Positions 10,918 through 31,400 of a DNA stretch of 32,000 bases are shown piece by piece. Positions within the stretch are counted from its first letter, which is position 1, and the number at the start of each line of letters is the position of its first letter. The DNA comes from Haloferax volcanii DS2 (lineage in GTDB: Archaea; Halobacteriota; Halobacteria; Halobacteriales; Haloferacaceae), in NCBI RefSeq assembly GCF_000025685.1, contig NC_013964.1, forward strand, positions 150,001-182,000. Direction: 5' to 3'. Below the pieces are notes generated by a model that was given only the letters and a program-made list of their open reading frames with translations, was not told the DNA's origin and ran no database searches. The position numbers and the translations under genes are program-made.

Positions 10918-11056
10918 ACGAGTGCTTTCTGGTGAATTTCGAAGCGACGTGAACGCGTGAACCGGGTCGCGTTTGCGGACGGCTGTTCTCTGCGAAAACG
11001 AATACGCTAAGCCAGTCGCCCCCGGTGGTTGCTTTGACGTTCCTGAATATCTGACT

Positions 11057-11104
11057 GGCCTAACGTTCGGAACTGTTTTGTATGTTTAGGCTGGCCTAAA
11101 TAAT
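11057..11104 (+). promoter_or_regulatory. Putative promoter/operator: GCCTAA half-site, TTCGGAAC, TATA-like TTTTGTAT, and palindrome TTTAGG-N4-CCTAAA (11085-11100) ending 4 nt before the ATG
   Basis: GGCCTAACGTTCGGAACTGTTTTGTATGTTTAGGCTGGCCTAAATAAT followed by the ATG. It aligns without gaps, 38/51 identical by hand count, with the region upstream of the paralogous gene at 18898-18948 (minus strand). The TATA-like element is centred about 26 nt before the ATG, which fits a leaderless transcript. Confidence 0.55.
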
Positions 11105-12310
11105 ATGGTGGACGATTCCGAAAACAGCAAGACACTGACACGGCGTGGCTGTCTGAAGTACGGCGGAACAATCGCGGGAAGCGGGCTCCTTGCAGGCTGT
11201 TCTGGTACTTCCGAGCCAAGCAGTTCGTCTCCGAAGTCGCGTACGTCATCGACGCAGACGGCTGTTTCGGAGACGGTCTCGGAGACGGATACGGCGACCG
11301 GGTCAGATGAGCCGTACACTGTCACAATCGAACCGATGGGTGAGGTTGCGTTCGACGGCCCGCCCGAGCGGTGGACCGCATTACTACCCACTTTTGCGGA
11401 TATGGCGTTCGCACTCGGTGGTGGACAGACGCTTGGTATTCAGAACCACGACCGTTTTGCGAGCGAGGCCTTCGAAGAGCTTCCCGGGATAGACTTCGAC
11501 GCAGATGACACCGTGGAACTGGTTGCCGACGGTGTGAGTAAGGAACTGTTCTATGAGATGAACGCGGACGTTCATTTCATAGACCCCCATATACTGCGAC
11601 TCTGGTACGGCTGGGATCAGTCTGACGTCGATGAGATTGCGGACAACGTCGGCCCGTTCTTTGGCAACTTTATCCGCCGCCACAGCGACGACTGGCACGA
11701 TTACCGTTACTACACCTTGTACGAGGCCTTCGGACTGATGGCTGAGGTCTTTCAGGCACAGGACCGATACCAGGCATTCGTCGAACTCCACGAGGAGATG
11801 CTTGCGTTGGTCGATGAGCACTTGCCGCCAGCCGACCAGCGTCCAACCGCCTTACTGGTATATCCGGCCGACGGAGCGGGCTTCCAGTTCTACCCGTTCC
11901 GGTTTGATGACGGGGGAGTCAGCACTAAGCAGTGGCGTGATCTCGGGCTGACCGATGCGCTTGCGGCGACGGATGTCGGTCATTACAGTTTCTCTGACAG
12001 GGGGACGCTCGATATCGAAGCCCTGATGGAAATCGACCCCGAGGTGCTGCTGGTGCGAAACTATGGCGGGGCGTCCGAGTCAACGTTCCAGAAGGAAGTC
12101 GTCGAACCACTCCAAGACCAAGCGGGGTCTCATAGCCTGCAGGCGGTTGAGGACGACGCGGTTTACAGTGCCGGTTACCTTGACCAAGGGCCAATCATCA
12201 ACTTCTACCATACCGACCGGGCGGCGAAAGATATCTACACGGACTCGTTCGAGAACGTGACGCTATTCGACCGTGAACGCGTCGCAGAAATCGTCCACGG
12301 AAACATCTGA
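11105..12310 (+). CDS. ABC-transporter substrate-binding lipoprotein, class III periplasmic-binding-protein type (siderophore/cobalamin/metal-chelate family), Tat signal plus lipobox
   Basis: The N-terminus TRRGCLKYGGTIAGSGLLAGCSG has a twin-arginine motif and lipobox and is followed by a Ser/Thr/Glu-rich linker. The body resembles Peripla_BP_2-type binding proteins and is paralogous to the ORF at 17680..18900. No permease or ATPase gene is adjacent. Confidence 0.8.
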   Translation: MVDDSENSKTLTRRGCLKYGGTIAGSGLLAGCSGTSEPSSSSPKSRTSSTQTAVSETVSETDTATGSDEPYTVTIEPMGEVAFDGPPERWTALLPTFADMAFALGGGQTLGIQNHDRFASEAFEELPGIDFDADDTVELVADGVSKELFYEMNADVHFIDPHILRLWYGWDQSDVDEIADNVGPFFGNFIRRHSDDWHDYRYYTLYEAFGLMAEVFQAQDRYQAFVELHEEMLALVDEHLPPADQRPTALLVYPADGAGFQFYPFRFDDGGVSTKQWRDLGLTDALAATDVGHYSFSDRGTLDIEALMEIDPEVLLVRNYGGASESTFQKEVVEPLQDQAGSHSLQAVEDDAVYSAGYLDQGPIINFYHTDRAAKDIYTDSFENVTLFDRERVAEIVHGNI

Positions 12311-14628: not shown

Positions 14629-14916
14629 GAGTCTCGTAGCCCTAGAGCCGACTTAGTAATTCACCCGAAGCATTCTGTGTCGAGCTTATCTCCTAAGCCG
14701 ACCGGGTATCTGTATCCACTATCGAGAACGTCCCTCCGCACCGTGCTTCGTGAGGTACTTGGAGAGGTTATCTCTGCGCCGGCGATGGGTGTCGTCGCAC
14801 ACGCGTCGGCGGTGATCGATGTCGACACGAAGTCAACGCGGTTCATCAAACAGAGCGAGCCGAGACGTTCTGACCTCAGGACTTTTGGGGACCTCGTCCG
14901 TCGTCTTCCACTGACC

Positions 14917-29399: not shown

Positions 29400-31400
29400 A
29401 AGTCGATTCAGCGACCGGACACGAGTCTACTGGTCAACAGATGTCGAGAAAACGAGTGAAAATCGACAGAGCAGCCGCTACCGAACTCTCAAACCGGAAT
29501 GAGAAAAGCGTTACCCGAACTCACGCAGGAAGTCCCCTAACGCTCGCACGAAGGTCTTCGCCGTGATTACAGGCGGCGACCGAATCGGCTCGTCGAGCGC
29601 GACCTTGATCAGATAGTCCGTGAGCCGCCACAGGTTGTAGATCAACGTCGACAGCGCAAAGTTACAGAATCGAAGCCGATAGTCCGTCGACGACGTCTTC
29701 GGCATGAAGCTCTTGATCGACTTGTACTGGTTCTCGATGTCCCAGCGCCGACTGTACCCGTTCACGACACTTCGAATCTTCTCAGGTTCCACGCGGTCCT
29801 GATTCGTCACGAACACCGCGTACTTCCCCTCAGCATCGTCGCTCGTACTCGGCGCGTAGAGGAACTCCGCTTCGTGGTGAACCTCGCCATCGATTCCCAA
29901 TGGTACGTCGTGCTTGACAGCTGCGTCTGCCGTCGGATGCTCCTGAATATCCTGAACCGCCGTCAACTCATCTTCATACTTCGGAACTGGTGAGAGGTAC
30001 GTGATTTCCCGATCGTGGACGTCCGCGTACACACGATTCACGTAGAATCCTCGGTCGAACATCACCGTGTCCAGATCGACGAACCGCTCGGCGCTGTCCA
30101 ACAGCCGACTCACGAGGTCGGCTTTCGAGTACGATGGCGAGTCGTCGGGTTCCCATGCGGAGTTCTCTTTCACCGGCTCGATACCGAGAACAATCGGTGC
30201 GTGGTCACCGACCAGTGTGATCGTCGCGTATTTGTATCCACGCTTGTACTCGCCGTCTTTCTTGTACCCGCTCACCATCTTCGGGTAGTCCGGCTTGGCG
30301 ATACCCGCTTCCTTGTCTTCCCACGGCCAGACGTGGAACTGCTCGTGGGTGATGTCGATGGCTGCAATCGTCTCACGCGACTCGAAGGGGTTCTGACCGC
30401 GAATCGAGTTGATGATGTTGTCCGTCGCGGCGTCGAACGCTGTCATAATGGCGTCTCGAATCCGGTCGGTTTCCGGCATTGAGTCGTCGTCCTCGAAATC
30501 CTCGAACGTGAGCTGACTATCCGAGTCCTCTGGAGTAGCAATCTTCTTCATCGCCCGCAGGAACGTCGAGTCGTCACAGATGAGGTCATCGTCGGTGAGC
30601 CAGCCGTACTCCGATTCCGAGTGAGCACTCCCCTTGTTCGCACAGATCCGCGCGAACATATCCAGAATTACCTCGTCGGAGTACGTCTTGTGGGCCGCTC
30701 GGTGCGTATCGAACTCGGGAAGGACGTGTTTTCGAGCGAGCGTCAGCGTCTTCTGGGCTTTCTCCTTCTTGTACTCGCTCTCGCTCTTCGAAGTCGAATT
30801 CTCAGGTTCCGTCGGAATGGTTGGAACAAGGCCTTCCGTGAGTACGCCGTGATTGAGCGCGGCCTGTCGAACGCCAGCGACAGTTCTGTTCAGAACCTCT
30901 TGTGTGTTCTCACTGAACTGCGCGTGCGTATACGAGAGCTGTTGCTGGGTCGGAGTATTCGAGAGATCGGTGGTATCGAGGTGGAAACTCTTGACCAAGC
31001 TCGGCTCCCGCCCGAGTCGTTGGGCTAATTCGTTCTGTGAGATACCCCGAATCCCTTTGAACAGGAGCGTGCGGAACATCTCATCGGTTCCAAACGTCAC
31101 GCGGTTCTGATCGCGAGCATCCTCGAGGTTGTCGACGGGGATCGATAGCTGACGAATCACGTCCCAGAGGTGGTCTTCACGCTCACAGAGCGTCTCCGCG
31201 TGGACAATGATTGAGTCAGCAACAGCCGACGGGTCAGTCAGCATTGAACCACCTCGGGGGTGAACTGATCTGCTTCTGAGGTGTGCTCGACCAAATACTG
31301 ATGTAATTCTGTGTAGAGACATCCGCTATCCAAGAACAGAGATCAGTATAGAATAGAGTGGAAATAGTGTAGAGCATTTTGCGATGATTGTATGCTCTGA
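29400..31400 (-). mobile_element. IS4-like insertion sequence (boundaries approximate, terminal repeats not resolved)
   Basis: A single long transposase gene is flanked by AT-richer non-coding sequence (29249-29510 and 31245-31541). I could not identify convincing terminal inverted repeats or target-site duplications by eye. Confidence 0.45.
29511..31244 (-). CDS. IS4-family-like DDE transposase (intact, about 577 aa)
   Basis: The C-terminal Y-(2)-R-(3)-E-(6)-K signature is YSRRWDIENQYKSIK. Acidic DDE-type regions are present (AAIDITHEQFHVW, VMFDRGFY). An N-terminal HTH-like segment is present (FRTLLFKGIRGISQNELAQRLG). The start is set at the ATG at 31242-31244 (MLTDPSAVADS). The track start 31322 adds 26 basic, atypical codons. 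Confidence 0.8.
   Translation of the reverse strand: MLTDPSAVADSIIVHAETLCEREDHLWDVIRQLSIPVDNLEDARDQNRVTFGTDEMFRTLLFKGIRGISQNELAQRLGREPSLVKSFHLDTTDLSNTPTQQQLSYTHAQFSENTQEVLNRTVAGVRQAALNHGVLTEGLVPTIPTEPENSTSKSESEYKKEKAQKTLTLARKHVLPEFDTHRAAHKTYSDEVILDMFARICANKGSAHSESEYGWLTDDDLICDDSTFLRAMKKIATPEDSDSQLTFEDFEDDDSMPETDRIRDAIMTAFDAATDNIINSIRGQNPFESRETIAAIDITHEQFHVWPWEDKEAGIAKPDYPKMVSGYKKDGEYKRGYKYATITLVGDHAPIVLGIEPVKENSAWEPDDSPSYSKADLVSRLLDSAERFVDLDTVMFDRGFYVNRVYADVHDREITYLSPVPKYEDELTAVQDIQEHPTADAAVKHDVPLGIDGEVHHEAEFLYAPSTSDDAEGKYAVFVTNQDRVEPEKIRSVVNGYSRRWDIENQYKSIKSFMPKTSSTDYRLRFCNFALSTLIYNLWRLTDYLIKVALDEPIRSPPVITAKTFVRALGDFLREFG

Follow-up and report, generated by a model that had tools for sequence, protein, structure and literature searches.

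The two similar 51-nt blocks found in this region of Haloferax volcanii DNA are very probably the core promoters of two siderophore substrate-binding protein (SBP) genes, HVO_B0144 and HVO_B0150, and contain binding sites for the iron regulator TroR that have already been published. We analyzed a 32-kb window (150001-182000) of the megaplasmid pHV3 (NC_013964.1) of strain DS2; positions given below are those of the window, and the pHV3 coordinate is obtained by adding 150000. For this organism, the literature already covers the regulator, its motif, its binding at both promoters and HVO_B0144 as a regulon member. The genes and promoter elements, with distances counted from the conserved ATG, are as follows.

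11105..12310, plus strand: HVO_B0144, siderophore/iron-complex substrate-binding Tat-lipoprotein of 401 aa, Pfam PF01497, matching ADE01510.1/D4GPE5 exactly.
11049..11064, plus strand: distal TroR-box position of HVO_B0144, −56 to −41; degenerate (ATCTGACTGGCCTAAC), with the right half-site GCCTAA alone kept and a score below 8 bits with the box PWM.
11066..11073, plus strand: BRE-like element TTCGGAAC of HVO_B0144, −39 to −32; the consensus of 66 related promoters at this place is aatCG.AAc.
11076..11083, plus strand: TATA-like element TTTTGTAT of HVO_B0144, −29 to −22; a T-rich block is conserved here in the 66 promoters.
11085..11100, plus strand: proximal TroR box TTTAGGCTGGCCTAAA of HVO_B0144, −20 to −5; a perfect motif match in ChIP peak 4, and at 29.3 bits the best PWM score of the window.
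17680..18900, minus strand: HVO_B0150, paralogous substrate-binding protein of 406 aa, Pfam PF01497, matching ADE01619.1/D4GPF1 exactly.
18941..18956, minus strand: distal TroR box TTTTGGCCTGCCTAAA of HVO_B0150; one mismatch, 25.9-27.7 bits, 36 bp from the proximal box, in ChIP peak 5.
18932..18939, minus strand: BRE-like element TTCGGAAC of HVO_B0150, in agreement with the consensus of the 66 promoters and the proposed haloarchaeal BRE.
18922..18929, minus strand: TATA-like element TTTTGCGT of HVO_B0150, in agreement with the T-rich block of the 66 promoters and the proposed haloarchaeal TATA element.
18905..18920, minus strand: proximal TroR box TTTAGGTGAGCCTAAA of HVO_B0150, −20 to −5; a perfect match, 25.5-26.4 bits, in ChIP peak 5.
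19317-19745: nikR (HVO_B0151), divergent neighbor of HVO_B0150; the NikR protein matches ADE01537.1 exactly.

The 51-mer at 11057-11107 (plus strand) aligned without gaps to that at 18948-18898 (minus strand), and the computed identity, 38 of 51 positions, was the same as the hand count in the earlier note. This is 8.8 SD over the background formed by all window 51-mers on both strands (mean of 12.2 identities, SD of 2.9). The highest match to an unrelated 51-mer, again on both strands of the window, was 25 identities, and a single 51-mer with 27 identities resulted from the palindrome overlapping itself. The complete pattern of conserved blocks was present in the window at these two sites only, with 0 expected from 100 shuffles. 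TTTAGG was found only at 11085, 18905 and 18941, as had been seen by eye, and a search for TTTAGG-N4-CCTAAA returned two perfect matches and one with a single mismatch, compared to 0.15 expected. The one-mismatch match, at 18941-18956, represents a further box in the HVO_B0150 promoter, a short way upstream of the proximal one; the earlier note had the position right but missed its role as the distal box. When the 32-kb window was scanned with a PWM built from 159 boxes (training median of 26 bits), zero sites above 8 bits were detected outside the boxes named above. The shared block is thus confirmed as an observation, and the concern that its motif might be scattered over many non-promoter sites was not borne out in the window, which holds no further copy.

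The proteins encoded downstream both belong to the Peripla_BP_2 family (PF01497) and are 31% identical, in line with the initial impression of paralogues sharing about one third of their residues. Each carries a lipobox and a twin-arginine (Tat) signal, and homologues have kept these features. Names given to the homologues include iron-complex, ferrichrome and Fe3+-hydroxamate binding protein. HVO_B0144 and HVO_B0150 are two among 11 paralogous siderophore substrate-binding proteins of H. volcanii. With PF01497 SBP genes downstream in both cases, the boxes lie in promoters of iron acquisition or storage genes. For SBP1, no sequence match was identified among solved structures. The two genes are separated by 7.8 kb on one megaplasmid, a transposase gene is present in the window, and the similarity of the blocks could accordingly be imagined as a neutral relic of a recent promoter duplication or gene conversion, or as part of a repeat element, maintained without selection. 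However, the coding regions have diverged to the extent given above, the window has no other copy, and the same blocks were found upstream of homologues in many genera (see below). The cross-genus conservation refutes recent duplication or a repeat element, leaving the neutral reading with hardly any probability, and agrees with the proposal in the earlier note that selection acts on the DNA element.

TroR is a DtxR-family iron regulator whose ChIP-seq motif in H. volcanii is TTTAGGC-NNN-CCTAAAANAN (TTTAGGC-NNN-CCTAAA), and iron-transport promoters often have tandem TroR motifs about 30 bp apart (Martinez Pastor et al., NAR 2023/24, PMC10783522). The window boxes TTTAGGCTGGCCTAAATAAT and TTTAGGTGAGCCTAAACCAT match the published motif; judged by their letters, two perfect boxes and one with one mismatch, at 25-29 bits, qualify as TroR sites. 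The 51-mers correspond to pHV3 161057-161107 and 168898-168948 and lie inside TroR ChIP-seq peaks 4 and 5, respectively. Peak 4 (pHV3 160800-161399) covers the HVO_B0143/HVO_B0144 intergenic region and peak 5 (pHV3 168600-169199) the 5′ end of HVO_B0150 and its upstream region, and both were obtained in three replicates (bioRxiv 10.1101/2023.08.16.553580). TroR occupancy in vivo at both promoters is thus established from published ChIP-seq, not from data generated here. The locus tag HVO_B0144 was taken from the ChIP table of the same study, which also gives, in pHV3 coordinates, the HVO_B0150 end at 167680, the nikR start at 169317 and the HVO_B0143 end at 160810 (window 10810). Among the regulators that the earlier note had put forward, a DtxR/SirR/Idr-type iron regulator is therefore the one that fits, since a DtxR-family motif and TroR peaks are present at both sites.

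H. volcanii has three DtxR-family regulators, and the motif alone cannot separate paralogues, so that Idr or SirR might be the main binder instead of or alongside TroR. We regard this as improbable, because TroR was the protein used for the ChIP-seq that gave peaks at both promoters, the motif itself was derived from TroR peaks, and repression of a paralogous promoter was lost in a troR deletion (PMC10783522).

Taken together with the alignment of related promoters, the TroR assignment allows each conserved block to be given a likely function. The upstream GCCTAA block is the right half of a distal TroR box; in HVO_B0144 this box position precedes the proximal box by 36 bp, at a place that in most related promoters is taken by a full box. 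The TTCGGAAC and TTTTG blocks resemble core-promoter elements, being BRE- and TATA-like, respectively, and the elements proposed for haloarchaea are CGAAA for the BRE and TTWT for TATA (PMC4983044). The block list of the earlier note hence stands in that every block is conserved and can be explained, but the upstream GCCTAA is now placed as a distal-box half and TTCGGAAC and TTTTG as BRE- and TATA-like elements. The further claim that the operator palindrome sits between a TATA-like box and the start codon held, and the same layout is conserved in related promoters.

Leaderless transcripts make up 72% of the mRNAs of H. volcanii (PMC4983044), and the mRNAs of HVO_B0144 and HVO_B0150 are probably leaderless as well, as judged from conserved spacing: the TATA-like element is about 26 nt from the ATG, and the ATG follows 4-5 nt past the proximal box, which is consistent with a start of this type. 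The same spacing bears on the idea that the palindrome acts not as DNA but as a hairpin in a 5′-leader RNA, with translational or attenuation control. The arms could pair as a 6-bp stem, and GCCUAA, UUAGGC and GCCUAA could in principle pair alternatively. However, the ATG and TATA-like positions are those expected for a leaderless mRNA, and an Rfam search returned no match at E≤1. In addition, 75 arm pairs varied among the 159 boxes, and 69 of these changes break the pairing while 1 is compensated, which indicates conservation of the sequence and not of a structure. We consequently rejected a cis-regulatory RNA and consider it extremely unlikely.

The position of the operators depends on where the genes begin. 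RefSeq/PGAP places the start of HVO_B0144 at 11336 (324 aa) and that of HVO_B0150 at 18720 (346 aa), and these starts, used in the ChIP study (161336 and 168720), come 231 and 180 nt after the conserved ATG. The short forms lose the conserved twin-arginine signal and lipobox of HVO_B0144 and HVO_B0150. The conserved promoter and the alignment of homologues favor the 401- and 406-aa forms, with ATG at 11105 and 18900, over the RefSeq starts. The TroR motif has been reported to lie ~100 nt upstream of start codons (PMC10783522), whereas the boxes measured from the conserved ATG begin at −20 and −56; the RefSeq starts, being too far downstream, inflate the apparent distance from motif to start and hide the real geometry of operator and start. 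A GTG at 18915 had been raised as a possible start of HVO_B0150 that would put the palindrome into coding sequence. We rejected it: this GTG falls within the proximal box, and the spacing of 19-20 nt that is conserved from the beginning of that box fits the ATG at 18900. We note that an ORF of 147 codons at 18942-19385 (minus strand) occupies most of the 416-bp HVO_B0150/nikR intergenic region, with a CPRC...CPRR stretch and its terminal TAA within the distal TroR box. It had no Pfam match and there is no gene call at this location, and it is probably spurious.

To analyze the conservation of this arrangement, we aligned 19 homologues and, with that alignment, retrieved 80 related loci that come from many genera of haloarchaea. 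These loci contained 153 boxes with no more than one mismatch, compared to 0.3 in block-shuffled sequence, and 108 of the 153 were located within 200 nt upstream of the SBP match, a zone that makes up 4.8% of the sequence. At least one box was present within 200 nt upstream in 64 of the 80 loci. Where boxes occurred in tandem, the spacing was 36 bp in 46 of 65 pairs, and in 50 of 64 promoters the first start codon was 19-20 nt past the start of the proximal box. The consensus of the 66 promoters aligned on the proximal box reads TTTAGGc..GCC.AAA, aatCG.AAc, a T-rich TATA-like block, TTTAGGc.aGCCTAAA and a...ATG. The common layout is thus a distal box, a BRE-like CG(G/A)AAC, a TATA-like element, a proximal box and an ATG at the distance just given. 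The phylogenetic footprinting that the earlier note had proposed therefore yielded both recurrent boxes and fixed spacing, between the boxes and to the ATG; the comparison of sequences shows that other species have kept the element in their orthologous and paralogous promoters.

For most of the other boxes, the gene that began 18-24 nt downstream encoded a further Tat-lipoprotein SBP, a membrane protein or an FAD oxidoreductase. In loci from other genera (L029 ~3578, L046 ~3618; L024 ~223), an FAD/NAD(P) oxidoreductase-like gene (with ...GEYDVVIVGGGVGG... at the N-terminus) and a membrane-protein gene likewise follow TroR-type boxes at a distance of ~20 nt. In H. volcanii itself, one of the TroR peaks falls at HVO_1758, an NAD(P)/FAD oxidoreductase (bioRxiv 10.1101/2023.08.16.553580). 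Genes of these two kinds are probably conserved members of the TroR regulon. In eight loci (L035, L053, L059, L079, L068, L081, L080 and L082), boxes were found ~1200-1390 nt upstream of the matched SBP, and several genomes have two tandem SBP paralogues with tandem boxes before the first gene only, which suggests a two-SBP operon with a single operator pair.

The earlier note had also named NikR, encoded at 19317, as a candidate regulator. NikR tetramers bind half-sites set widely apart, and the inverted repeat GCCTAA-N22-TTAGGC, with nikR as the divergent neighbor of HVO_B0150, resembles NikR operators in its widely spaced inverted half-sites and in the adjacency of the gene; ChIP peak 5 moreover overlaps the 500 nt upstream of nikR. 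However, a nikR-like gene was near the SBP in only 2 of the 80 loci, against 64 of 80 with boxes, and this failure of linkage to nikR or nickel-uptake genes led us to reject a NikR operator. The element also precedes HVO_B0144, which is not a neighbor of nikR, the boxes are ~360 bp from the nikR start, and the half-sites are fully accounted for as parts of the two TroR boxes. Control by NikR is therefore very improbable, and we retain TroR as the regulator of both promoters.

Elsewhere in the window, HVO_B0149 is ohyA/D4GPF0 and HVO_B0138/139 are PQQ proteins. A stretch of ~100 bp (14761-14867), at the 5′ end of a gene for a BAT/HTH_10 regulator, matches plasmids of many other genera at 88-95% identity, including Halorhabdus, Salarchaeum, Halobacterium, Halorubrum and Halolamina. 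In those genera the matching stretch spans the start of a gene for a hypothetical protein of 190 aa together with the sequence before it, and it belongs to a conserved module in which a restriction endonuclease gene usually comes last. The stretch 14761-14867 appears to be a piece of plasmid backbone that is shared widely. The intervals 21961-24764 and 29511-31322 (both minus strand) drew attention for CapC-like and Mur-ligase-like genes, possibly for poly-gamma-glutamate synthesis, that adjoin genes for a response regulator and for a PAS/GAF histidine kinase of 1301 aa, and for a DDE transposase gene near the window end.

With TroR as the regulator, the arrangement suggests how the promoters may work. 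When iron is sufficient, metal-loaded TroR would occupy the proximal box, between TATA and the start site, and, where the distal box is intact, would also sit there, beside the BRE and abutting TFB/TBP. TroR on the boxes would block assembly of the transcription machinery, and from its position we infer that the repressor at the proximal box occludes recruitment of the polymerase. When iron is scarce, TroR would leave, and the uptake proteins would be made.

The published TroR operators of H. volcanii (PMC10783522) are the same as those described here in organism, replicon, motif and tandem boxes, with both sites in peaks, and nothing is different in kind. One member of that set is the promoter of HVO_B0047, a paralogous SBP gene beside the iuc siderophore operon. 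In reporter assays it was repressed under iron-replete conditions, and repression was kept with either box mutated but lost with both mutated and lost in the troR deletion (PMC10783522). In our plasmid comparison, an H. lucentense plasmid, 99.4% identical, stood in for pHV3. Its near-identical copy of the HVO_B0047 promoter has the same layout, with boxes at L085 24346 and 24382 (36-bp spacing) and the ATG at 24402, 20 nt past the start of the proximal box. The reporter evidence is for a paralogue of the two window promoters, and the distal box of the HVO_B0047 promoter is nearly intact (1 mismatch), whereas that of HVO_B0144 has lost its left half.

Outside the archaea, the bacterial DtxR/IdeR 19-bp iron box TTAGGTTAGSCTAACCTAA shares the core TTAGG-N4-CCTAA and is likewise a site for a metal-dependent repressor in iron-uptake promoters. 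The bacterial box consists of two overlapping dimer sites with a 5-bp offset, whereas here two separate 16-bp boxes, 36 bp apart, flank an archaeal BRE and TATA. The four CCTAA repeats of the 19-bp box were not found in the boxes here; each has the 14-bp core only, with a variable center (C/T-N-N-G/A). Because this core equals the 14-bp site proposed for one IdeR/DtxR dimer, TTAGGNNNNCCTAA (PMC8464063), each box likely binds one TroR dimer.

Data on iron-dependent expression of HVO_B0144 and HVO_B0150 are only partly documented. In proteomics, the HVO_B0144 protein was up 4.9-fold on iron starvation, and the HVO_B0150 protein was not reported among the iron-regulated proteins (PMC11349517). 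According to that paper, every fhu/phu SBP gene or operon of H. volcanii has upstream of it the DtxR ‘motif I’/ferR (FerR) regulon signal, which Leyn and Rodionov 2015 had predicted by comparative genomics; HVO_B0144 is named as a member, and the likeness of that signal to our boxes is one of description. At the transcript level, RNA-seq of the parent strain without versus with iron gave for HVO_B0144 a log2FC of 0.07 (p 0.96), the standard error being large at 1.3 (bioRxiv 10.1101/2023.08.16.553580). We note that ATP synthase and an RNA polymerase subunit are near the top of the list in the corresponding sheet (-vs+Fe.pyrE.RNAseq of Suppl. Table 3), at log2FC >5. These housekeeping genes, together with the standard error for HVO_B0144, call for caution with the iron-response values of that sheet, and for both promoters we can only infer how large the response would be.

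Across genera the geometry is close to invariant: the distal box adjoins the BRE, the proximal box separates TATA from the start, and the two boxes are set 36 bp apart. One possible meaning is that two TroR dimers cooperate on either side of TBP/TFB and are not redundant roadblocks. Single-box variants of the HVO_B0144 type would then have a different iron threshold, with graded de-repression among the 11 SBP paralogues. We consider this reading doubtful; if true, it could explain the high expression of HVO_B0144 without a clear transcript response to iron. As a discovery, the finding matters little. What our analysis adds is the correction that the RefSeq starts of HVO_B0144 and HVO_B0150 are too far downstream, and the base-level anatomy of the promoters, in which boxes at −56 and −20 flank the BRE- and TATA-like elements in a layout common to SBP promoters across haloarchaeal genera.
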